Shown here piece after piece: positions 3-10,243 of a DNA stretch of 32,000 nucleotides. Positions within the stretch are counted from its first letter, which is position 1, and the number at the start of each line of letters is the position of its first letter. The stretch spans positions 1 to 32,000 of the forward strand of contig JAJRZD010000035.1 of NCBI GenBank assembly GCA_024275415.1, written 5' to 3'. A model generated the notes under the pieces. That model saw only the letters and a list, made by a program, of their open reading frames with translations. It ran no database searches and was not told where the DNA came from. Source of the stretch: an archaeon. GTDB taxonomy: Archaea > Asgardarchaeota > Thorarchaeia > Thorarchaeales > Thorarchaeaceae. A program made the translations under genes and the position numbers.

Positions 3-1094
3 AAGCAAGGCGAGTCCCCTTCTTATGTGAGAACAAGTCTTGCAGCCGCGATGACAATGGGGAAAATGAGTGGAAGCTTCTATCGGAATGCGAAACTCCA
101 CTGTGTTAACCTCCTCCTGACATACGATGAAGGCTGTCACGCGAAATGTGCGTACTGTGGGCTATCTGGCTCGCGTGAAACCGAGTCTGAGTGGACCGAG
201 AACTCCTTCATCCGTGTTGACTGGCCTGTCTATTCCATCGAAGAGGTAAAGGAAGCACTAGCAAGTGGCGTCTGTCCTCATGTGGAACGTGTCTGTGTTT
301 CCATGATCACACTGGGAAAGGCCCGGGAGGATTGTATCTCCGTAGTGAAGGATCTGAGCGAGGTCATCCCTCGAATCTCTGTCCTGCTTACCCCGACAAT
401 CGTGAATAGAGATTGGCTTGTGCGCGTGAAAGAAGCAGGCACTGATAAGGTCGGAATCGCAGTGGACGCCGCGACACAAGAAATATTCGAAAAAATGCGT
501 GGAAAGGGCGTAAATGGTCCGCACCAATGGCAGCGATACTGGGACACCATCAAGGACTCCGTAGAAGTCTTCGGGAAACACAATGTGGGAGTACATCTGA
601 TAGTCGGGCTGGGCGAAACTGAGCAAGAGATGCTAGAAACAATCCAGCGTGCACACGATTTGGGTGCTCGGACACACCTGTTTTCATTCTTCCCCGAGGA
701 TGGCTCTGCAATGCAGGACATTCCCCAACCACCTCTTGGTGCTTACCGAAGAGTGCAGTTTGGGCGTTACATCATCAACTATGATCATGGACGATACGAG
801 GACATGACCTTCAACGAGCATGGACAACTCACGTCGTTCGGACTGGATTCTGATGTCTTCGAACGCCTGCTTTCCTCTGGTGAGCCATTCATGACCTCCG
901 GATGCTCTGGTGCTACAGTAGAGAATGCGTGTAATCGACCTTTCGGGAACTGCACTCCATTCCAAGCCGCTGTGGGACACTGGAGGAACTTTCCCATCAA
1001 CCCCAATCAGGATGATGTCGAGATAATCCGAGAGCAATTGAATGATTACTCGCTAACATATGATTTTGAAGAGGTCGAGAAAGAGTTTGAGTGA
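3..1094 (+). CDS. lipS2: Radical SAM protein, LipS2-type subunit of the archaeal two-component lipoyl synthase (probably 5'-truncated by the window edge)
   Basis: Frame is open from position 3 (KQGESPSYVRTSLAAAMTMG). CxxxCxxC (CHAKCAYC) plus C-terminal TSGC...CNRP, matching the TxGCxxC(N/D)RP-type motif described for LipS2. Lies next to a second radical SAM gene, a lipoate ligase and a GGR-like flavoprotein. Confidence 0.8.
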   Translation, partial: KQGESPSYVRTSLAAAMTMGKMSGSFYRNAKLHCVNLLLTYDEGCHAKCAYCGLSGSRETESEWTENSFIRVDWPVYSIEEVKEALASGVCPHVERVCVSMITLGKAREDCISVVKDLSEVIPRISVLLTPTIVNRDWLVRVKEAGTDKVGIAVDAATQEIFEKMRGKGVNGPHQWQRYWDTIKDSVEVFGKHNVGVHLIVGLGETEQEMLETIQRAHDLGARTHLFSFFPEDGSAMQDIPQPPLGAYRRVQFGRYIINYDHGRYEDMTFNEHGQLTSFGLDSDVFERLLSSGEPFMTSGCSGATVENACNRPFGNCTPFQAAVGHWRNFPINPNQDDVEIIREQLNDYSLTYDFEEVEKEFE

Positions 1095-2115
1095 TGACAT
1101 AGACTCGCTCCTTGATCTTTGTTTCAACGGATCCGAAGAGGAGCTTACACCACTCTTTGAGAAGGCATTCGAGGTTTCTCGATCCCGGTTCTCTAATGTG
1201 CTCGCACTACATGCTCCAGGGATGGTTCATTATAGCACAGATTTCCATACTGCAACTGACCCCTACCGTTTTCCAAGTGTTTCTATTTCTGGCTCAGGAT
1301 GTTCATTGAGCTGTGAGCATTGTAGTAGGAAGCTGCTTGAAACCATGATTCCTGCAACGACTCCAGAGATGCTATGGGAAACCTGCCTGAAAGTTTCCGA
1401 AAAAGGCGGAGAAGGGGTTCTCATCAGTGGGGGTTCTACGCCAAAGGGCAACACTCCTCTTCTGGACTTCATTCCTACAATCAAGCGGGTCAAAGAAGAC
1501 CTTGGATTAGATGTCGTCGTACACACAGGCGTTGTATATCCCGATGTGGCTGAAGGTCTTGGTGACGCAGGCGTAGATGGGGCAATGCTTGATATCATCG
1601 GTGATGAGGCTACATTGCGGGAGGTTTACCACCTTGATCTTCATGTCTAGGTCTTTGATGAATCTCTTTCGTTGCTAGAGGACAATAATGTCCCCAGTAT
1701 GCCTCATATAGTGGTCGGGCTCTATTATGGCAAGCTTCGTGGCGAGTCGAATGCCATCAGGATCATCGCTCGGCATGACCCGCAGTCTATCATCATTGTT
1801 GCCTTCAAGCCATTAGAAGAAACACCTATGCACAATGTGGTTCCAGCATCTCCACTGGATATCAGTCGTGTCCTCTTAGCATCTCGTCTGGTCTTTCCGG
1901 ACAAGCCTGTCATCCTTGGATGCGCGAGGCCGCATGGTGACCACCGCCGAGAAACAGACATCCTTGCAATCCGTGCTGGTATCAATGGGATGGCATACCC
2001 GACGGAGGAAGGATACGAGTTCGCAGAAACATTGGGACTAGTACCGAAGATGTCCAACAAATGCTGTTCGTTGATGGATGATGTATTGCCAATACACAGG
2101 GAGCTGAAGATGTAG
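1087..2115 (+). CDS. lipS1: Radical SAM protein, LipS1-type subunit; reading frame interrupted by an in-frame TAG at 1648-1650
   Basis: ORFs 1060-1650 and 1672-2115 share one frame separated only by TAG. The N-half has CSLSCEHC (CxxxCxxC); the C-half has GCAR (1918-1929) and CC (2062-2067), the motifs described for LipS1. Start is TTG 1087 (8-nt overlap with lipS2) or ATG 1060. Confidence 0.8.
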
Positions 2116-3729
2116 ATGGAACAATGGAGATTGCTGGACACAGGTGTTCTCACAGGCTCTGAGAATATGGCGTTAGATGATGCGATATTGGAATGCCGCT
2201 CGGCAGGCACGACTCCTAATACACTCAGATTCCTTCAATTCAACCCTGCCACTGTGTTGGTCGGGTTTCATCAATCAATAGCGCAAGAGGTTCGATTGGA
2301 CTATTGCAGGGCCCATGGCATCGATGTTAATCGGCGCATCACTGGAGGCGGTGCAATCCTCTTTACTCCCACCTGTCTTGGATGGGAGATATTTGCCGAT
2401 AAATCCGTTCCCGGGATACACGAGCTTCGTTACGACCTGGATCGTCTGGCTCAGTTGATATGCTCAGGGACTGTGCTCGGTCTGAAGGAGTTAGGCGTCG
2501 AGGCTGAGTTCCGTCCAAAGAACGATATCGAGGTCAATGGACGAAAGATATCCGGTACTGGCTGGACTGAACGCGGCACTGCGTTCATGTATCAGGGAAC
2601 CTTATTGGTGGACTTTGATGTCGAACTGATGCTGAGAACTCTGCGAATTCCCGTCGAGAAGCTACAGGACAAAGAGATTGAAAGCGTGAAGGAACGAGTG
2701 ACCTGTCTAAAATGGGAACTTGGGTATGTCCCCCCATTGAACGAGATAAAACGGGCTCTCGCAAACGGGTTCGAGCAAGTCTTTCAGATGGAGTTAGAAG
2801 AAGGTAGGCTTACTTCAGAAGAAGAGGCTGTATTCAAGGAGTTCCTCCCAGAGTACCAGTCTGATGACTGGATTGACATGGTCAAACCCCCCAAGGATCA
2901 CGCAGGACATGTGACCGCCGTCAGAAAGACCCCCGGAGGTCTGATTCGTGTTTCGTTGTCGTTGAATGTGGCTGGCAATTTCATCACTAACAGTTTCATT
3001 ACTGGTGATTTTCAGATATTCCCCCAGCGTGCAGTTATGGATCTTGAAGCCAAGCTGAAGAATATTGCCACCGATGAAGAAACCATCCGGAAGAATGTCA
3101 TCGAGTTCTTTGAGCAGACTGGAACGAGGATATTTGGTGTCGAACCCGAGGAGCTTGTCCAATTGTTCCTTGAGGCAACAAAGAAGACTGCTTTCAAAGA
3201 GATTGGAATATCCCTTGAGGACTCTAACCACCTTATGACAGTAAACTTCATGCCTGATGAGGTCTTGGATCAGAGATTCGACTATATCCTTCTTCCCTAT
3301 TGTGCCAAGCTTGTCAATTGTGATTATAGACAAACTGAAGGATGCAGTGTATGTGGCGCATGTACTATCGGCGATATCTACGAGCTCGCTCAGGACTTGG
3401 ACATTCCCGTTCGAACTATTCAGAACTTCGAGCACCTCATTGCGACCATTGACGAGTTCAAGAAAAAAGGTGCACGGGGCTATGTTGGTTCCTGTTGTGA
3501 AGGGTTCTATAACAAGCACCATCGGGATTTCCTTGAAACTGGAGTGCCAGGTTTGCTCATAGATGTTGATGACTCAACATGCTACGAACTTGGAGAAGAG
3601 CATGATGCATATGTCGGTAAATTCGAAGGTCAGACTGCGCTGAAGCTTGAACTCTTGCGAAGAGTGCTCTCGGCCCTAAGAGAGAGAGGACGTATTCATG
3701 GGAGGACAACCGAGAGTGCAAAAGTATGA
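2116..3729 (+). CDS. Lipoate-protein ligase, Lpl(AB) order (catalytic plus accessory domain), with a C-terminal Cys-rich DUF116-like domain
   Basis: WRLLDTG..G..NMALD, RRITGGGAI, KNDIEVNGRKISGTG catalytic signatures; KTPGGLIRV accessory domain; C-terminal LPYCAK...C...CSVCGACTIG...GSCCEG. Confidence 0.88.
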   Translation: MEQWRLLDTGVLTGSENMALDDAILECRSAGTTPNTLRFLQFNPATVLVGFHQSIAQEVRLDYCRAHGIDVNRRITGGGAILFTPTCLGWEIFADKSVPGIHELRYDLDRLAQLICSGTVLGLKELGVEAEFRPKNDIEVNGRKISGTGWTERGTAFMYQGTLLVDFDVELMLRTLRIPVEKLQDKEIESVKERVTCLKWELGYVPPLNEIKRALANGFEQVFQMELEEGRLTSEEEAVFKEFLPEYQSDDWIDMVKPPKDHAGHVTAVRKTPGGLIRVSLSLNVAGNFITNSFITGDFQIFPQRAVMDLEAKLKNIATDEETIRKNVIEFFEQTGTRIFGVEPEELVQLFLEATKKTAFKEIGISLEDSNHLMTVNFMPDEVLDQRFDYILLPYCAKLVNCDYRQTEGCSVCGACTIGDIYELAQDLDIPVRTIQNFEHLIATIDEFKKKGARGYVGSCCEGFYNKHHRDFLETGVPGLLIDVDDSTCYELGEEHDAYVGKFEGQTALKLELLRRVLSALRERGRIHGRTTESAKV

Positions 3730-4786
3730 TGTGGTTGTTGTCGGTGCAGGTCCTGCCGGGTGCAGTGCTGCCGTCACATGTGCATCATTAGGAATGGAAG
3801 TTCTTCTACTATACCGCAAAAAGAAGGAGGCGCGGAAACCCTGCGGTGGAGTTCTACCTTGGATTACCACCGAGATAATTGAGGACATCTTTGACGAGGC
3901 GTTGCCTTCTAGGGTAATGAACAACCCTCAAGAGCTGGGTCTCTATTACGTCCCACCGAGCGGACGAAACGAGAGCGGTCGTGTCAGGAACTACAGGATT
4001 CACTATATTGTCCGTGAGAAGTTCGATGCATGGCTGATTGATATTACTGCCAGCGCAGGTGTTGAAGTCTTGACCGAAACCCGGGCCATCGCCCTCGAAG
4101 GTAACTCTCCTATAACAGTTCATGCTAAACGGCACAGCGGGGAAGAAATGTCATTCCAAGCAGAATATTTAGTCGGCGCAGATGGCGTTAGTTCGATGGT
4201 CAGACGGTCATTGTCCTTGGAGTCCGCAGCGGACTTCTTGATTGTGGGACAGCAGCTTTGGAGTAATAGAAGACATAGCGACCTAGAGGATAATTTCTAC
4301 GGCTTTTTCCGTGGGGACATTTCCATTGCATATTCCTATGCTATCCCAAAAGGCGATGACATACTGATTGGCACAGGCGTTCGACCTAGGCAAACACCCC
4401 ATGCCTTTGATGCACTTGATCGTTTCAAGGAATGGCTTGTTGACGACTTCAACTTTGATGATTCTACAATGTTGAAAAAAGAAACATGGGCAATCCCATT
4501 CGGATATTTCATCCCTGGGACAGGCAACACCTTGTTGGTAGGTGACGCAGCAGGACTATGCAACCCACTTTCTGGAGAAGGTATCCGATTGGGAATAGAG
4601 TCTGGTGAGGCGGCAGGTTCAGCAATCTCCAAAGCTAAAGAAGGTAATGACCTCTTGCAGTATTATATCCGTGAAGTCGATGGCATCGCTCGTATGGTAT
4701 TGGACTTGCACAAGTTCGTCGTCACAAGCACAGACGAATCGAGACAGGAATTTGTCCGGCAAGAACTGACGCGAGGCATCATCTAA
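3698..4786 (+). CDS. Geranylgeranyl-reductase-family FAD-dependent oxidoreductase; LipT-like by context
   Basis: DVVVVGAGPAG FAD motif, KPCGG, VGADG..S, LLVGDAAG..NPLSGEGI. Overlaps the ligase 3' end and is the fourth gene of the lipS cluster. Confidence 0.85.
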   Translation: MGGQPRVQKYDVVVVGAGPAGCSAAVTCASLGMEVLLLYRKKKEARKPCGGVLPWITTEIIEDIFDEALPSRVMNNPQELGLYYVPPSGRNESGRVRNYRIHYIVREKFDAWLIDITASAGVEVLTETRAIALEGNSPITVHAKRHSGEEMSFQAEYLVGADGVSSMVRRSLSLESAADFLIVGQQLWSNRRHSDLEDNFYGFFRGDISIAYSYAIPKGDDILIGTGVRPRQTPHAFDALDRFKEWLVDDFNFDDSTMLKKETWAIPFGYFIPGTGNTLLVGDAAGLCNPLSGEGIRLGIESGEAAGSAISKAKEGNDLLQYYIREVDGIARMVLDLHKFVVTSTDESRQEFVRQELTRGII

Positions 4787-4843
4787 GAGGCATGGCGCCT
4801 ATCGGAACTAATTAATTACTTCCTGATTCTTAGATGTGCAAAG

Positions 4844-6208
4844 TTGGACTCTACCATGCTCGTTGATAAGACCCTGTGTGACCCAAGCAAATGTGATATC
4901 GAGTGCTACAAGGCTTGTCTTGAAACCCATGGTTCGGATGCTCCTCTCACTTATGACATGGGTGGGGGCTATCCAACCATAAGACAAGAATCCTGTACTA
5001 ATTGCTTGAGATGTCTTCGCGCATGCCCCTATAACGCATTGAAGACTGACTCGACAAGAAAACGACGTACACACCCCGAGAGGAAAAAGGGACGTAGCCC
5101 GCAGAAGAAACCATACGTGGTGTCTTCGCAATGGGTCAGATTCTCGGAAGCCGACATGATTTTTGCTCGCGTACGTAATGACCCCTCCTTCGAGAACTAT
5201 CAGAAGAGTGAATGGTGGGGGGCTGAGAACATGATTGCACAGGGAATACCTGGGTATGGGCGGTTCGAGCATCATCTTGCAGCAGCTGGATGGACACTAT
5301 ATGATGAACGTACGAAGATTAATCCTCGTACGACCGATTACAGGACTACCATATCAAAGTCCAAGAGGATCAAGTCATCGCGTGAAACCTTAACAGATGC
5401 TATCAAGCGAGCTGCCCGTTTCTATGGTGCAGATCTCGTTGGAGTCGCAAGGGTTGATTCAAGATGGTTGTACACGCAGAACCGGAACCGTGAGGACTAT
5501 CACTTTCCCAAGTCTTTAAACCGGGCGGTTGTCATCGCGGTGGAAATGGACTATGACGGCATAGCGACTTCTCCTGCCTTTACATCATCTGCAGTCACTG
5601 CATTAGGGTACTCACGCATGGCTTTTGTGGAAATAGAATTGGCAGGCTTCATTAGGAGTTTAGGGTATACAGCTGTGCCCACTGGGAACGATATCGCTCT
5701 TAGTGTTCCCATGGCAATTGATGCAGGCCTCGGGATGGTCGGACGGAACGGGATACTGATAACGAAGGAATTCGGTCCTCGAGTTCGGATCGCAAAGGTA
5801 CTGACTGATATGCCTCTTGAATACGATGAGCCTGACATGAAATTCTGCAAATCTATCATCGAATTCTGTAAGGTCTGTGAAAAATGTGCAAGCACATGCC
5901 CCTCGCAGTCCATACCCTACGGAGAAAGACAAACCTGGAAAGGGGAAACACGCTCGAACAATCCGGGAGTGAAGAAATGGTATATCAATCCCGAAACATG
6001 CTATAACTTCTGGATCGAGAATGGTTCAGAGTGCTCCAACTGCATACGTTCTTGTCCCTACAATAAGCCAAACAATGTGTTTCATCGCTTCATTGTATGG
6101 ATTACCGTGAACTTGCCATGGCTGGACAAGGTCATCGTGAAGATGGATGACTTGTTCGGTTTCGGTAGACAAAAGAACCCCTTGTCGTATCTCGCCAAGC
6201 TTAAATGA
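4844..6208 (+). CDS. rdhA: Reductive dehalogenase-like cobalamin/Fe-S protein (RdhA family) with an extra N-terminal 2x[4Fe-4S] domain
   Basis: FYGADLVGVA, IAVEMDY, VPMAIDAGLG.VGRNG.LIT.EFGPRVR..KVLTD.PL, CKVCEKCASTCP and C...CSNCIRSCP. The DMIFAR and W..NPETCY.FW segments fit RdhA better than QueG. No Tat signal. Alternative start ATG 4856. Confidence 0.75.
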   Translation: MDSTMLVDKTLCDPSKCDIECYKACLETHGSDAPLTYDMGGGYPTIRQESCTNCLRCLRACPYNALKTDSTRKRRTHPERKKGRSPQKKPYVVSSQWVRFSEADMIFARVRNDPSFENYQKSEWWGAENMIAQGIPGYGRFEHHLAAAGWTLYDERTKINPRTTDYRTTISKSKRIKSSRETLTDAIKRAARFYGADLVGVARVDSRWLYTQNRNREDYHFPKSLNRAVVIAVEMDYDGIATSPAFTSSAVTALGYSRMAFVEIELAGFIRSLGYTAVPTGNDIALSVPMAIDAGLGMVGRNGILITKEFGPRVRIAKVLTDMPLEYDEPDMKFCKSIIEFCKVCEKCASTCPSQSIPYGERQTWKGETRSNNPGVKKWYINPETCYNFWIENGSECSNCIRSCPYNKPNNVFHRFIVWITVNLPWLDKVIVKMDDLFGFGRQKNPLSYLAKLK

Positions 6209-7764
6209 CCTCTGAACACCCCGTTGCGAAGGAGAATAAGTATTACAACATCATAAAACTGGTAGATACGCATAATCAATGTTCATTTCATCCAAACGAG
6301 GCTGATACGATGACTAAGAAGGTACAACGACGCAACACGGAAGACAAACCTTCTCACTTCGAGTTCACCCTCGGCGATGTCAAGCTGGATGAAACCGTGT
6401 TACATATGATTCTTGAACACAGCCACGATGCAGTTCTTATTGTTGGAATGGACTATAAATTCGAATACGTGAGCGAAGAAGGCTATAAGATGGTGAATGC
6501 AAAGGCAGGTGAGCTTATCGGTCTTGACTTCAGAGAGTACATGCCTGATGAAATGGCTCGCAAAGAGGTTGTGCAGCGGTTACGGGACATGCTTGCAGGT
6601 AAAGATGTGTCGCCTTCCTATAGCACTAAGATTCTCGATACCGACGGGAACATCCTCCATGTCGACATTCGAATAGTATTGATTCGTGATATCAATGACC
6701 AGCCAAAGGCACTGGTTCTGGTTCACGATAGGACAGAAGAGCGACTGAGTCAGGTTGCGCTTGAGGAGTCAGAATATCGTTATAGGTCACTCGTTGAGTC
6801 GATGAATGACGGTTTGGCGGTTGATACTCCTGATATGATTCTAACATACGCTAATGATGCCTTTTGTCAGATGTTGGAATACACAAGGGACGAGATTGTG
6901 GGACGATGCTGGCTTGATTTCACAACTGCTGATAGGGATGAAATGGAAGAACGTATCCGACAACGGGAAGAAGGTCAGTCAGAACGTTACGAGCTAGAAT
7001 GGATCACAAAGTCAGGACGGGCAGTCTATACCCTTGTGTCTGCTGTTCCCCTGTTCGATAGGTCTGGGGAGTTCAAGGGCACTTTTGGCGTAGTGACCGA
7101 CATAACAACGCAGAAGGAATATGAGGACACCATACAGTTCTATCTCGATCTGCTAACTCATGATATTGCCAATCAGCTTCAGGTCATCATGACTGCTGTA
7201 GGACTCCTTGACCAAGACCTGCCCAAACAGTACCTCGATGATGCTCGACAGGACATCACTGATGCCATCCAACGATGCGACAGGTTGATCACGAAGGTCA
7301 AACGTGCCGGGCAGACGCGATACCTGCCTCTCACCAGAATGGATCTTGCAACCGTCATCAAGGAGAAGGCGGCAGTTCTGCAAAGGGTATACTCTACGGA
7401 AGTAACCTTGAAAGGGATGAATGGTGCTTCTATGGTCTGGGCTGATGCCCTTCTAGGCGAGATGGTGTGGAACCTTCTAGAGAATGCAGCGCGTCACAAT
7501 CCAAGTAAGAAACGTAGAGTATGGATTTCAACATCACGAAAGAATGGCAATCTGCAACTTGTTATCTCTGATAATGGTCCAGGCATTTCAGACTCGAAGA
7601 AAAAGACCCTCTTCCAAAAAATGCAGCGGTCTGGAGGAGTTGGCCTCACCCTAGTATCCCAAATGATTCGCAAGTATGGAGGCACTATTGAGGTGAACGA
7701 CAGGGTGAAGGGCTCGCCCTCAAAAGGGGCGAAGTTCATCATCACCTTGAAGCCAGCAGAATAG
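6205..7764 (+). CDS. PAS-PAS sensor histidine kinase (soluble)
   Basis: Two PAS/PAC units, H-box LLTHDIANQL, N-box NLLENAARH, G1 DNGPGI, G2 GGVGL; no TM segment. Start is 6205 (ATGA overlap with rdhA) or 6310. Confidence 0.88.
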   Translation: MTSEHPVAKENKYYNIIKLVDTHNQCSFHPNEADTMTKKVQRRNTEDKPSHFEFTLGDVKLDETVLHMILEHSHDAVLIVGMDYKFEYVSEEGYKMVNAKAGELIGLDFREYMPDEMARKEVVQRLRDMLAGKDVSPSYSTKILDTDGNILHVDIRIVLIRDINDQPKALVLVHDRTEERLSQVALEESEYRYRSLVESMNDGLAVDTPDMILTYANDAFCQMLEYTRDEIVGRCWLDFTTADRDEMEERIRQREEGQSERYELEWITKSGRAVYTLVSAVPLFDRSGEFKGTFGVVTDITTQKEYEDTIQFYLDLLTHDIANQLQVIMTAVGLLDQDLPKQYLDDARQDITDAIQRCDRLITKVKRAGQTRYLPLTRMDLATVIKEKAAVLQRVYSTEVTLKGMNGASMVWADALLGEMVWNLLENAARHNPSKKRRVWISTSRKNGNLQLVISDNGPGISDSKKKTLFQKMQRSGGVGLTLVSQMIRKYGGTIEVNDRVKGSPSKGAKFIITLKPAE

Positions 7765-7773
7765 TCCTGCCAA

Positions 7774-8040
7774 TCATCTATTGATCCTTCTCTGAACCCT
7801 GTCATACAATCTCAGGTAGAAATTACGTTTCTTGACCTTCTTATTAAGGTCGAAGAAATTCGTGTTGATTCTGTATAGCTTCCTCTTCAACTCGTCATAC
7901 GGTTTCAGCGTACTCCCGTCACACATAGAGGAGAAGATAGAAGCAACTGTTTCAGGAAAATCATCGATATATTGACATCGCTCCAGTTGGATATGAAGCA
8001 ATGTGCTTTTCAGAATTGTTTCTTGCATAGCACTCTTCAT
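7774..8040 (-). CDS. Hypothetical protein (88 aa)
   Basis: ATG-started ORF filling the gap between a convergent kinase gene and an AT-rich divergent promoter region. Confidence 0.55.
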   Translation of the reverse strand: MKSAMQETILKSTLLHIQLERCQYIDDFPETVASIFSSMCDGSTLKPYDELKRKLYRINTNFFDLNKKVKKRNFYLRLYDRVQRRINR

Positions 8041-8193
8041 TTTGGTCCCCAGCAGCGTATTATAGGATATTATTAATTAAGAATTCTGGTAGATTAATCC
8101 GAATATTCAATTATTGGATTCAACATCATAGTGTCTGCTTCCAATGCAGATTTAACTATAGGACCTGAAAAATCCTTGAGGTTCGTCTGAAGT

Positions 8194-8889
8194 ATGCGGA
8201 TAGCTTCGATAATCGATATCAGTCTGGTCGATGTTCCTAGGATCCCAGTCACAGTCATCTTTACGGGAGGGTGTAATTTCGACTGCCCCTATTGTCAAAA
8301 TGCCAGTTTAATCCCGCGCTCGAGTGGTGAAGAGCTCTCTCATGATGACATCATCGCCAAGATGGATGATTTTCTTTCAGACGGGTTCTGTATCACTGGT
8401 GGAGAGCCCACCATACAAAACGATCTCCCGGACTTCCTCGGCGCGCTCCGAAAACGCATTGGAGGACATATCAATCTAAACACGCAAGGCTCCATTCCCA
8501 CGACCCTCAAGAGGTCGCTACCCTTCCTAGATTCTGTATGGTTCGACATCAAGGCTTCCCCTAGCCATTATCAGGTCGTAAGCAGGACTAAGCATGATCC
8601 ATGGCCCTATATCCGGGAGAGCATAGACCTAGTTCTCCGTGCTGATGCCGAATTCTGGCCAAGAACTACTTATGTAGGCAATCTATTATCCCCTCAAGAT
8701 CTTGTGGACATCCTTGAGTTTCTTGAAGGGGTTGGATTTGACGGGACTTATACGATTCAAAACTACGTTCAATCAGCGGGTGTCCGACCCGATGAAACCT
8801 CTCATTTAGTAGAACTAGATATGAGCGATGCAGTGGACGCAGTCGAGTCATTTGCTCCTTCTTTTGATATCTCTTTCATGTGGAGATAG
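8194..8889 (+). CDS. nrdG: Anaerobic ribonucleoside-triphosphate reductase activating protein (glycyl-radical activase, radical SAM)
   Basis: ISLVDVP...VIFTGGCNFDCPYCQN, ITGGEPTIQ, NLNTQGS, FDIKA, RTT motifs typical of the NrdG2 type. Confidence 0.8.
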   Translation: MRIASIIDISLVDVPRIPVTVIFTGGCNFDCPYCQNASLIPRSSGEELSHDDIIAKMDDFLSDGFCITGGEPTIQNDLPDFLGALRKRIGGHINLNTQGSIPTTLKRSLPFLDSVWFDIKASPSHYQVVSRTKHDPWPYIRESIDLVLRADAEFWPRTTYVGNLLSPQDLVDILEFLEGVGFDGTYTIQNYVQSAGVRPDETSHLVELDMSDAVDAVESFAPSFDISFMWR

Positions 8890-9046
8890 TTTTGACTGTA
8901 GCGAAAAGGTTCATCATGCGCGTCATGAAAAAGCGATGTTTTCTCGGATTGTGAACACCACTAGATTCTTTCTCCTATTGTATTCTTCAATTCCCAATTG
9001 CACCATGACTCTTCCAGTTCATCCAAGATTGTTTTTTTTGGTAATA

Positions 9047-9949
9047 ATGGATAAAATATCTGGGTATGTTACGATGCGCGATTTAGTAGTGTTAATACGT
9101 GACTTGGTAGAGCATTTACAATCGAAGAAAATTGGACGATTATTCAGAGCGGGACGAGTTATTGTTTTCGAGATTGGGTCACACCAGATTGCAATTCCCA
9201 TGGGTTGGTTATCAAGAGAGGTCATCTCAAAAATCAAGAATCGATATTACTCACCAATAGTACCCACACGCGGACTCAAGATGCTACGAACAATATCTCA
9301 AATGATTGATGAGATCACTGATTTTGATTTGATCAATATTGATATCCGAATCGATAGTGTGAGGAAGAAGCTCAAAAAACCCTCACGACCCGATGCATTT
9401 TCGGATAATCCCCCTGGGGTCGTACATTTCAAGTACAGACAAGAAAAACGGAAATTCCTATTTCTAAGCCAATATAGAGCAAATACAGTGTGCCAACATG
9501 AGATTCCTTTGATTGCACGTTTAGAACGGTGCTGGTCATTCGGAAAGATATTTCCAAGCTTTTGTCTTGTCGAAGAGAAACGAAATGCATGGCACCGCAT
9601 CTTCGAGATTGATGCTGTTTCCTTTTGTAATGGCGACCTTTTCATGTTCGAGCTGAAGCACAGCAAATACAGTGATGAATTCAAGATCCTCGAACACTTG
9701 TTATCTGCTGGACGAAAGATTCAGATTTGGAGAGAGAAAATGAACCTACCAATTAGAAAGATAATACCTATAGTCTATCTGCGCAAGAAATCAGACCTTG
9801 CTCCACAATATCTAAACATCATCTTTTTTGAGGACTTGCACGAGAGTTTTACTGCACACCATTTGTCTAATTTCATTGCATATCCCATCGACAAAGATAT
9901 TTCCAAGGTGAAACTAGATGGAATGGCAATAGAAATTGCCGAAAGTTAA
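9047..9949 (+). CDS. Hypothetical basic protein with a PD-(D/E)XK nuclease-like motif
   Basis: HE...FEIDAVSF....LFMFELKH pattern; AT-rich coding sequence. The ORF-track start at 8828 overlaps nrdG, so ATG 9047 is preferred. Confidence 0.55.
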   Translation: MDKISGYVTMRDLVVLIRDLVEHLQSKKIGRLFRAGRVIVFEIGSHQIAIPMGWLSREVISKIKNRYYSPIVPTRGLKMLRTISQMIDEITDFDLINIDIRIDSVRKKLKKPSRPDAFSDNPPGVVHFKYRQEKRKFLFLSQYRANTVCQHEIPLIARLERCWSFGKIFPSFCLVEEKRNAWHRIFEIDAVSFCNGDLFMFELKHSKYSDEFKILEHLLSAGRKIQIWREKMNLPIRKIIPIVYLRKKSDLAPQYLNIIFFEDLHESFTAHHLSNFIAYPIDKDISKVKLDGMAIEIAES

Positions 9950-10243
9950 AACATGTCAATACTAAGTGAAATGCCTACAGCTTGTATATCCACGAGTCTG
10001 TATTATTGTGTACAGGTCCTTTACAGCTCGTTTCTCTAGTATGCTGAACCGAACGTGATGAATTTTGGTTTGGAGTCGTGGATGTAGTGGCATAGGATGT
10101 TAACCAAGAGGTATCACCAAACACCCCATCACTTTTTTACGCAATGCCCTTTCTGTGGGTACAGAAATAACCTTAAAAGTGCCCTTCTAATTTCGTAGTT
10201 TTGACCAGTTTGGTAAAAGGCATTGTATTTGGAGTGTTTGATT

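Follow-up and report, generated by a model that had tools for sequence, protein, structure and literature searches.

The window analyzed here, a stretch of 32,000 nucleotides, carries on its forward strand an open reading frame (4844-6208, 454 open codons from a TTG at 4844) that encodes a homologue of the reductive dehalogenase RdhA with an additional iron-sulfur domain at its N-terminus. Because all homologues begin at a Met aligned with residue 5 of this frame, rdhA most likely starts at ATG 4856; the predicted 450-amino-acid product is identical to a database entry (P0002). Residue numbers (Tyr256, C12 etc.) count from TTG 4844. The gene is single copy in its own genome. Upstream of it, a gene encoding an FAD protein ends at 4786; downstream, the ATG of a gene for a soluble PAS kinase overlaps the rdhA stop codon (ATGA). 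This same kinase gene lies directly 3' of the rdhA orthologue in four related loci (L010, L011, L012 and L013), and rdhA sits in a conserved block together with the PAS kinase, a radical SAM gene and proteasome alpha. The coordinates of all features are collected in Table 1.

Table 1. Features of the rdhA locus in the window (residues numbered from TTG 4844)
Feature	Position	Strand	Evidence
rdhA (450 aa, Tat-less RdhA homologue with N-terminal Fe-S domain)	4856..6208	+	TIGR02486, homologue starts
N-terminal 2x[4Fe-4S] ferredoxin-like domain, ABCE1/RLI type (residues 5-67)	4856..5044	+	NF009945, PDB profile, Foldseek, hhalign
First Cys motif C-x4-C-x3-C-x3-C, CDPSKCDIECYKAC (C12, C17, C21, C25)	4877..4918	+	Sequence, alignment
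Second Cys motif CxxCxxCxxxCP, CTNCLRCLRACP (C51, C54, C57, C61, P62)	4994..5029	+	Sequence, alignment, Pfam
Flexible linker, 22 residues, basic in this orthologue only	5045..5110	+	pLDDT, charge count
RdhA catalytic core (cobalamin-binding fold and two Fe-S motifs)	5111..6205	+	PceA/NpRdhA sequence and fold matches
Tyr256, equivalent to catalytic Tyr246 of S. multivorans PceA	5609..5611	+	HMMER alignment to 4uqu, codon checked
Asn282, equivalent to PceA Asn272	5687-5689	+	HMMER alignment to 4uqu, codon checked
Arg315, equivalent to PceA Arg305	5786-5788	+	HMMER alignment to 4uqu, codon checked
Core Fe-S motif 1, CxxCxxCxxxCP, CKVCEKCASTCP (C342, C345, C348, C352)	5867..5902	+	Sequence, alignment
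Core Fe-S motif 2, C-x10-C-x2-C-x3-CP (C386, C397, C400, C404)	5999..6058	+	Sequence, alignment
Soluble PAS-PAS-HATPase sensor kinase gene	6205..7764	+	Pfam matches and sequence; conserved neighbour downstream of rdhA

The larger, C-terminal part of the product corresponded to an RdhA catalytic core with two Fe-S motifs of its own, as an earlier note on this DNA had read it. The RdhA model TIGR02486 scored 214.6 bits (cut-off 160.35), and the Pfam Dehalogenase model PF13486 scored 13.5 bits, under its cut-off of 24.3. The best matches in both sequence and structure were the respiratory PceA enzymes of D. hafniense (PceA2B2, 8q4h_A, E 2e-61) and S. multivorans (4uqu_A, E 3e-54), with about half of residues 227-447 identical, while NpRdhA was more distant (E 3e-27). 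When the AF2 model of the full-length protein (pLDDT 91.9) was used in Foldseek, PceA and NpRdhA were retrieved at E values from 1e-26 to 1e-18. In an alignment of 64 homologues with 39-71% identity, 16 of 16 cluster cysteines, Tyr256 and Asn282 were invariant and Arg315 was present in at least 90% of the sequences; the PceA Tyr/Arg/Asn residues are also kept in the Thorarchaeota RDases described by Manoharan et al. (2019, mBio, PMC6737245). Grouping of the core with QueG, a member of the same cobalamin/Fe-S superfamily, was the alternative assignment that the earlier note had wished to see checked, and some database copies of this RdhA family are labelled epoxyqueuosine reductase by JGI. However, the QueG model TIGR00276 gave 52.2 bits against a cut-off of 200, the PDB entry of QueG matched at E 1e-4 along no more than some 70 residues, and its Foldseek TM score was 0.30 as compared to 0.62 for PceA. 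By sequence and by modelled fold the protein is thus placed in RdhA and not in QueG.

The likeness to PceA comprises the fold of the core, both of its Fe-S motifs and the Tyr/Asn/Arg set, but PceA, exported with a Tat leader, docks on RdhB, whereas the protein analyzed here shows none of this and has a ferredoxin domain instead. With the cytoplasmic NpRdhA/BhbA-type enzymes it shares the lack of Tat and of RdhB. Enzymes of the NpRdhA type are about 700 amino acids long; they contain a second, vestigial cobalamin-binding domain and often also an NAD(P)H-ferredoxin reductase module at the C-terminus. Neither that second domain nor a C-terminal NAD(P)H reductase module was detected here by Pfam or NCBIfam; the 450-amino-acid protein ends with the RdhA core, and its extra redox module is N-terminal.

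Both cysteine motifs that had been noticed at the N-terminus were found at their place, and their likeness to the Fe-S domain of ABCE1/RLI, also claimed before, was borne out, ABCE1 being the best full-length match in sequence, profile and fold. The RLI model NF009945 matched at positions 6 to 67 only (E 1e-8), the best full-domain PDB match of the N-domain profile was ABCE1 (6tmf_d, 50.7 bits), Foldseek superposed the N-domain on ABCE1 over 65 columns with an rmsd of 1.9-2.0 A, and hhalign aligned it with a Thorarchaeal ABCE1 at 98.7% (E 3.6e-16) over 69 collinear columns. An ordinary PorD-type ferredoxin domain, used as control, gave 32 columns only, with the second motif alone aligned. Pfam placed Fer4 and Fer4_6 matches at residues 44-67, and Fer4_RLI (PF04068) scored 18.0 and 22.6 bits, under the cut-off of 23; the precomputed annotation of P0125, a fused relative of divergent sequence, includes a weak match to Fer4_RLI. 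The N-domain folded alone reached a pLDDT of 59.3, and about 90 only in the full-length context, so that the structural likeness to ABCE1 refers to the full-length model, the isolated-domain model being too poor for a fold search.

In detail, the collinearity with ABCE1/RLI extends over about 65-69 residues and includes the first motif C-x4-C-x3-C-x3-C, with a C-x-P-x2-C signature within it in this orthologue, a gap of 25 residues between the motifs (C25 to C51) and then CxxCxxCxxxCP. There are differences as well: the fourth Cys of the first motif is followed by Leu here and by Pro in ABCE1, the N-domain is only 23% identical to that of the Thorarchaeal ABCE1, and since the twin ABC ATPase domains are missing the protein is not itself an ABCE1. 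The eight N-domain cysteines are invariant in the 64 homologues and the motifs are therefore not a matter of chance; together with the two core motifs they make four [4Fe-4S] sites plausible, and the enzyme probably holds four clusters, in agreement with the up to four proposed in the earlier note. A profile search for a stand-alone form of the N-domain at similar lengths yielded two matches, both fragments, so that this query revealed no split form. Other PF04068 matches in the genome (a Tsr3-like protein and an ABCE1 fragment at a contig end) were unrelated to rdhA, and so was the C45 match in the same genome, a PorD-type subunit.

N-domain and core are joined by a linker that had been described as basic. 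This holds for the present orthologue, in which the net charge is +9 over residues 66-92, but not for the family: among the 64 homologues the linker has 27-41 residues and a net charge from -7 to +9 (median +1), and a basic linker is for this reason not a family feature. The linker is apparently flexible, as residues 73-81 were modelled with pLDDT below 50. When N-domain and core were predicted as a complex, the score was 0.34 (runs of 0.34, 0.23 and 0.71), the best of three controls giving 0.00; the mark applied to this score is passed by 58 of 80 solved complexes and by 2 of 110 mismatched pairs, and scores of 0.60 or lower include only 7 of those 80 solved complexes and both of the passing mismatches. 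The runs agreed in at least 57% of contacts and the partner pLDDT was at least 81. This modelling weakly suggests that the N-domain may dock on the core.

The N-terminal fusion was seen in no fewer than 110 of the 120 protein clusters nearest to this sequence, the remaining 10 being N-terminally truncated calls, so the N-domain is kept in close orthologues. Among 70 sampled genomes of the same family rdhA was present in 50, always as a single copy, with the fusion in all 48 full-length matches; it was not found in the other 20, several of which are more than 90% complete. Four further families of the phylum contain fused full-length relatives (39-44% identity), and the nearest database proteins (51-71% identity, from many genera) are annotated as Thorarchaeota reductive dehalogenases. 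In a phylogenetic tree the fused forms made up one clade nested among Tat-less short RdhAs, with a support of only 80, and a single origin of the fusion, among RdhAs without Tat, is probable.

The earlier note suggested that such an architecture might not have been described, a reading it would give up if the fusion were a documented common form; this is the case, and this part of its reading did not hold. Manoharan et al. (2019, PMC6737245) reported Thorarchaeota RDases with an extra N-terminal 4Fe-4S domain, an RdhA core, a C-terminal dicluster, no TAT signal and no B protein, present once per genome of an Asgard host in conserved synteny, and Han et al. (2025, Microbiome, PMC12219181) found N-terminal 4Fe-4S ferredoxin domains in RdhA-like proteins of Heimdallarchaeia. 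The fused architecture is accordingly a standard and already published form in Thorarchaeota and other Asgard archaea, and the gene in the window, from a Thorarchaeota-type Asgard archaeon, is orthologous to the 'putative reductive dehalogenases of Thorarchaeota' already on record, from which it differs in nothing essential, the unusually basic linker of this orthologue apart. Yet Manoharan et al. annotated a single extra 4Fe-4S domain (pfam00037) and neither the C-x4-C-x3-C-x3-C motif nor a likeness to ABCE1, and this specific likeness, together with the implied second extra cluster (four in all), appears to be unpublished. The Heimdallarchaeia proteins are similar in their N-terminal ferredoxin domain and in being archaeal RdhAs that group with PceA-type enzymes, but their domain was tied by the authors to quinone-derived electrons, whereas the RdhA analyzed here shows no membrane or quinone sign.

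Concerning the location of the enzyme, the lack of a Tat leader and of an adjacent rdhB, on which the earlier note had based a cytoplasmic reading, was corroborated. No RR pair is present in the first 60 residues, the FAD protein and the PAS kinase flank rdhA without room for rdhB, and rdhB does not lie next to rdhA in the four related loci either. No hydrophobic stretch or membrane helix was found in the protein (maximum Kyte-Doolittle 19-residue mean of 1.25), and TatC was not found in its own 92.9%-complete genome, the control search being positive in 11 of 14 reference genomes. In genomes of Thor- and Lokiarchaeota, Manoharan et al. (2019, PMC6737245) found no B proteins.

With a probability of about three in four, we consider that the gene encodes a soluble cytoplasmic cobalamin-dependent RdhA, in which a PceA-like core with two [4Fe-4S] sites and the Tyr/Asn/Arg set is connected by a flexible linker to a two-cluster ferredoxin domain homologous to that of ABCE1/RLI, and in which dehalogenation would be fed by a soluble low-potential donor. 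Judging from the sequence, cytoplasmic reductive dehalogenation is its likely function. The N-domain clusters would be reduced by reduced ferredoxin or a partner oxidoreductase as the low-potential donor, and electrons would pass from them to the two core clusters and on to cob(I)alamin, which would strip a halogen off an organohalide; halogenated phenolics or aromatics are the most likely substrates. A reaction that takes place inside the cell, uncoupled from the membrane, would serve catabolism, detoxification or an electron sink rather than organohalide respiration of the classical kind. The soluble PAS kinase, conserved downstream, is a possible regulator of rdhA.

No known prokaryotes are more closely related to eukaryotes than the Asgard archaea, whose energy metabolism is still read largely from their genomes. 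A cytoplasmic dehalogenase that is nearly universal and brings its own domain for electron input could provide an important sink for electrons in marine sediments, or else give access to halogenated organic matter. The literature had pointed this out in 2019 and again in 2025, and the window contributes one further orthologue; the refinements contributed here are the homology of the N-domain to the ABCE1 Fe-S domain, the eight rather than four invariant cysteines and the conserved soluble PAS kinase downstream.

Organohalide respirers carry variable, multi-copy rdhA genes, unlike the single, strongly conserved copy in conserved synteny seen here, and such a pattern would be compatible with a different physiological substrate that is itself conserved. 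The protein could then belong to the RdhA family and be no dehalogenase in vivo, acting as a conserved housekeeping reductase that directs cob(I)alamin to another substrate in a QueG-like manner; QueG reduces an epoxide. One copy per genome in 50 of the 70 sampled genomes, the block shared with the PAS kinase, radical SAM and proteasome alpha genes, the identity of 51-71% kept across many genera and the PF13486 score under its cut-off are all in line with such a role. We nevertheless consider it unlikely, since the PceA-type Tyr/Asn/Arg set is conserved, TIGR02486 is above and the QueG model far below cut-off, and the fold is much closer to PceA than to QueG; besides, the 20 family genomes in which the gene was not found make a poor fit to an essential function. 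Furthermore, in the part of Li et al. (2026, PMC13101508) that cites Ng & Silver 2024, a Thorarchaeota RDase (UniProt A0A5C9E7E1) is given among the RDases heterologously expressed in E. coli that are active on organohalides.

It is also conceivable, though improbable, that the N-domain is no electron relay at all: it could sense redox state or oxygen, serve for docking between proteins, or reductively activate cob(II)alamin in its inactive state, in no case supplying electrons for catalysis. The homologous Fe-S domain of ABCE1 acts structurally and mechanically on the ribosome, with no known redox role; this, the flexible, poorly conserved linker and the weakly supported docking on the core would be compatible with such a reading. 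Against it stand the invariance of all eight cysteines and the loss, in this enzyme, of the other known routes of electron entry, RdhB and an NAD(P)H reductase domain, and the domain was modelled confidently only together with the core. Finally, a respiratory, quinone-linked RdhA that a partner yet to be recognised holds at the membrane, and whose extra clusters broaden the route out of the quinone pool, would agree with the menaquinol-dependent PceA of D. hafniense being the closest solved relative and with the grouping with 'quinone-dependent prototypical' enzymes and multiple electron paths from the quinone pool proposed by Han et al. (2025, PMC12219181), but we regard it as very improbable in a protein without Tat motif, membrane helix or adjacent small membrane gene, from a genome in which TatC was not found and a lineage in whose genomes Manoharan et al. 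found no B proteins, and whose fused clade lies among Tat-less short RdhAs, if only with the tree support given above.

The cytoplasmic dehalogenase with an electron-input domain can be extended to a bolder reading, which we put forward as possible but doubtful. The N-domain might be a true descendant of the archaeal/eukaryotic ABCE1 Fe-S domain that became fused, inside the Asgard archaea, to a Tat-less RdhA core derived from bacteria, and the single-copy, kinase-paired gene might represent a regulated ferredoxin-oxidising electron sink of Asgard fermentation instead of an occasional catabolic accessory. If true, the protein would be a chimeric four-cluster enzyme.

Two sets of neighbouring genes were considered as partners of rdhA and rejected. 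The FAD protein encoded upstream (3698-4786) is preceded by LplA and radical-SAM lipoate genes, and among the five loci compared (the window and L010-L013) it is found upstream of rdhA only in the window and L010; it was not retained as a dedicated reductase partner. In L011 the region upstream of rdhA contains divergent genes for MtrH, RACo and a B12-binding protein, and in L013 a deacetylase gene; as the MtrH/RACo/corrinoid genes are missing from the window, L010, L012 and L013, they are not part of the rdhA unit and were discarded as a cobalamin-activation partner. The genome has two CbiM genes, for corrinoid or cobalt handling.

The protein encoded by the ORF at 4844-6208 (+) scored 214.6 bits against the reductive dehalogenase (RdhA) model NCBIfam TIGR02486 (cut-off 160), whereas the QueG model TIGR00276 gave 52 bits (cut-off 200). 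Its top sequence match among solved structures was D. hafniense PceA (8q4h_A, E 2e-61); S. multivorans PceA (4uqu_A) matched at E 3e-54 and the catabolic NpRdhA at E 3e-27, while the QueG match (E 1e-4) was limited to about 70 residues. A Foldseek search used an AlphaFold2 model built on a 64-homologue alignment (mean pLDDT 91.9, pTM 0.85, pLDDT below 50 only at linker residues 73-81). It placed PceA on top (E 1e-26 to 1e-22, TM about 0.62), NpRdhA second (E about 1e-19) and QueG third (E about 5e-6, TM 0.30). Thus the core groups with RdhA and away from QueG. In a HMMER alignment to 4uqu, Tyr256, Asn282 and Arg315 aligned with PceA Tyr246, Asn272 and Arg305; the first two are invariant in the 64-sequence alignment and the arginine occurs in 90% or more of its rows, and the eight core Cys are invariant in these 64 homologues. 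Residues are numbered, as in the earlier note, from TTG 4844, where the ORF, which is real, opens. The true rdhA start is almost certainly ATG 4856, because all homologues begin at a Met aligned with residue 5 and the database copy (P0002) has 450 aa.

The N-terminal domain carries two further Fe-S motifs, found where the earlier note had read them. Residues 6-67 matched positions 6-67 of the NCBIfam RLI/ABCE1 model (E 1e-8, the top match for the region), and the top PDB match for the region was the archaeal ABCE1 chain 6tmf_d (E 8e-6). When the PDB was searched with a profile of 40 N-domains, the strongest matches running the full length in one piece were to ABCE1 chains (50.7, 46.2 and 43.7 bits, profile positions 3-67); polyferredoxins scored higher in total only by summing repeats, each matching the second motif alone, and no single stretch of them exceeded 21 bits. 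In Foldseek, ABCE1 chains came first after the RdhA/QueG superfamily, with alignments mostly of 65 columns, rmsd 1.9-2.0 A and 26% identity. Using hhalign, the N-domain aligned with a profile of ABCE1 proteins from the window's family (12 genomes) over 69 collinear columns (98.7% probability, E 3.6e-16, score 79), whereas a control, an ordinary PorD-type two-cluster domain of the same genome, aligned over just 32 columns near the second motif (score 34). Model, profile, fold and hhalign matches, together with this control, support the ABCE1/RLI-type assignment, with the caveat that Pfam Fer4_RLI scored 18.0-22.6 bits, just below its gathering score of 23. Eight N-domain Cys are invariant in the 64 homologues and, with the eight of the core, make four [4Fe-4S] sites plausible.

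As for the ABCE1 proteins of the 12 genomes, the second Cys of CxxCxxCxxxCP is replaced by Glu or Ala in 11 (C-S-G-[E/A]-x-x-C-V-K-K-C-P), CSGCGMC being kept in L027 only; with this replacement, the ferredoxin-like cluster of ABCE1 in this family would have three Cys ligands. The assembly breaks up the window genome's own ABCE1 gene: the C-terminal half ends at a contig edge (C69:20463-21251), and an RLI-type Fe-S fragment lies at the edge of another contig (C50:3-68).

No RR pair occurs within the first 60 residues and the peak 19-residue Kyte-Doolittle mean is 1.25; therefore the protein has no Tat leader and no membrane helix, in agreement with its description as Tat-less. The absence of an adjacent rdhB also held, since the upstream gene stops at 4786 and the downstream gene begins at 6205, overlapping the rdhA stop (ATGA), which leaves no space for it. 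The window's genome (92.9% complete) has one rdhA copy, two CbiM genes and no detectable TatC.

Of the 3863 homologues from a word-indexed search, the 120 best clusters all consist of proteins of about 450 aa with query coverage of 87-100% (mostly 97-100%); by source label they derive from Thor-, Loki-, Hod- and Odinarchaeota MAGs and, where named, they are all labelled reductive dehalogenase. Both N-terminal motifs are present in 110 of them, and the other ten are truncated calls whose start is an internal Met codon or a contig edge. In a survey of 301 genomes of the phylum (each at least 80% complete; E 1e-40 or better), 194 had an RdhA match. Within the window's family rdhA was found in 50 of 70 genomes, always as a single copy; 48 matches are full length with the N-domain, and the two in genomes G016 and G180 are confined to a part of the core. 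Fused proteins of full length (39-44% identity) occur in four more families, and other families have shorter Tat-less forms without the N-domain. When 135 core sequences were placed in a maximum-likelihood tree, all 14 fused rows fell within one 18-row clade (SH-aLRT 94), whose other four rows are an N-truncated fragment and a small group without the fusion. Its neighbours in the tree are short Tat-less RdhAs (support only 80), a position that fits a single fusion in an already cytoplasmic lineage followed by occasional loss. No stand-alone N-domain was found in a profile search.

The architecture, which the earlier note thought undescribed, is both common and documented. Manoharan et al. 2019 (PMC6737245) reported Thorarchaeota enzymes nearest to S. 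multivorans PceA, with conserved synteny, which like the window protein carry an extra 4Fe-4S domain at the N-terminus, lack TAT signals and B proteins and keep Tyr246/Arg305/Asn272; Han et al. 2025 (PMC12219181) described Heimdallarchaeia RdhA-like proteins whose N-terminal 4Fe-4S ferredoxin domains are complete. The window protein is a further orthologue of this published type: the observation stands and its structural interpretation was largely right, but the claim of novelty was wrong. Neither paper mentions the unusual first Cys motif or the ABCE1 homology, and our literature search found no paper naming both 'reductive dehalogenase' and 'ABCE1'. Once the first motif is recognised, the number of implied extra clusters rises from one to two. 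The sole addition is a refinement, namely that the extra domain of these RdhAs is an ABCE1-type two-cluster module.

Concerning electron supply, this RdhA has lost the two known routes of entry (quinol through RdhB, and an NAD(P)H reductase at the C-terminus), and it has acquired a two-cluster domain whose ligands are invariant. On the simplest view, the N-domain would serve as the electron entry point from a soluble low-potential donor. Its pLDDT is about 90 within the whole protein versus 59 when folded alone. The predicted N-domain/core complex, with four clusters included, scored 0.34 (runs 0.34, 0.23 and 0.71), against a best score of 0.00 for three controls. Of 80 solved complexes 58 reach this mark, as do 2 of 110 mismatched pairs; at 0.60 or below, however, only seven of the 80 do, together with both passing mismatches. 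The runs share at least 57% of contacts, with partner pLDDT of at least 81, and weakly suggest docking on the core. According to Li et al. 2026 (PMC13101508), citing Ng & Silver 2024, a Thorarchaeota RDase expressed in E. coli was active; the cited screen was for PCE dechlorination and 2,4,6-triiodophenol deiodination. This report, on an enzyme akin to the window protein by host lineage and enzyme class, and the conserved PceA active-site residues favour genuine dehalogenation as the probable activity.

Coordinates of Fe-S motifs and of genes flanking rdhA
Feature	Position (nt)	Strand	Basis or place
Radical-SAM ORF	1060-1650	+	upstream of rdhA
BATS-domain ORF	1672-2115	+	upstream of rdhA
LplA-DUF116 fusion	2116-3729		upstream of rdhA
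FAD-binding protein	3698-4786		directly upstream of rdhA
N-domain motif 1, C-x4-C-x3-C-x3-C	4877-4918	+	sequence
N-domain motif 2, CxxCxxCxxxCP	4994-5029	+	sequence
Core Fe-S motif, CxxCxxCxxxCP	5867-5902	+	sequence
Core Fe-S motif, C-x10-C-x2-C-x3-CP	5999-6058	+	sequence
PAS-PAS-HATPase kinase, soluble	6205-7764	+	starts on rdhA stop codon
88-aa ORF, no Pfam family	7774-8040	-	after kinase
373-aa ORF, no Pfam match	8828-9949	+	between radical-SAM gene and proteasome alpha

Both in the window and in each of the four related Asgard loci that were compared (L010-L013), the kinase is the gene directly 3' of rdhA. Its HisKA match is weak (15.8 bits) and no response regulator was seen nearby. Since Thorarchaeota genomes are broadly syntenic (Manoharan et al., PMC6737245), this adjacency is suggestive of a regulatory pairing with rdhA but not proof. 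A functional link of the four upstream genes to rdhA was rejected, because they adjoin it only in the window and its closest relative L010, and not in L011 or L013. The radical-SAM and BATS ORFs resemble halves of one lipoyl-synthase-like gene with a stop between them. In L011, a complete Thorarchaeota genome, genes for MtrH, a RACo-type corrinoid activase and a B12-binding protein (2548-5837, -) are divergent from rdhA; they are missing at that position in the window, L010, L012 and L013. Past the kinase the gene order is conserved: the small opposite-strand ORF (89-90 aa at the matching place and strand in L010-L013), a radical-SAM gene, proteasome alpha and RimK. No gene occupies the position of the 373-aa ORF in L010, L011 or L013, so this ORF may be an insertion; the GC content of its region (8001-10000, 0.417) is the lowest in the window.
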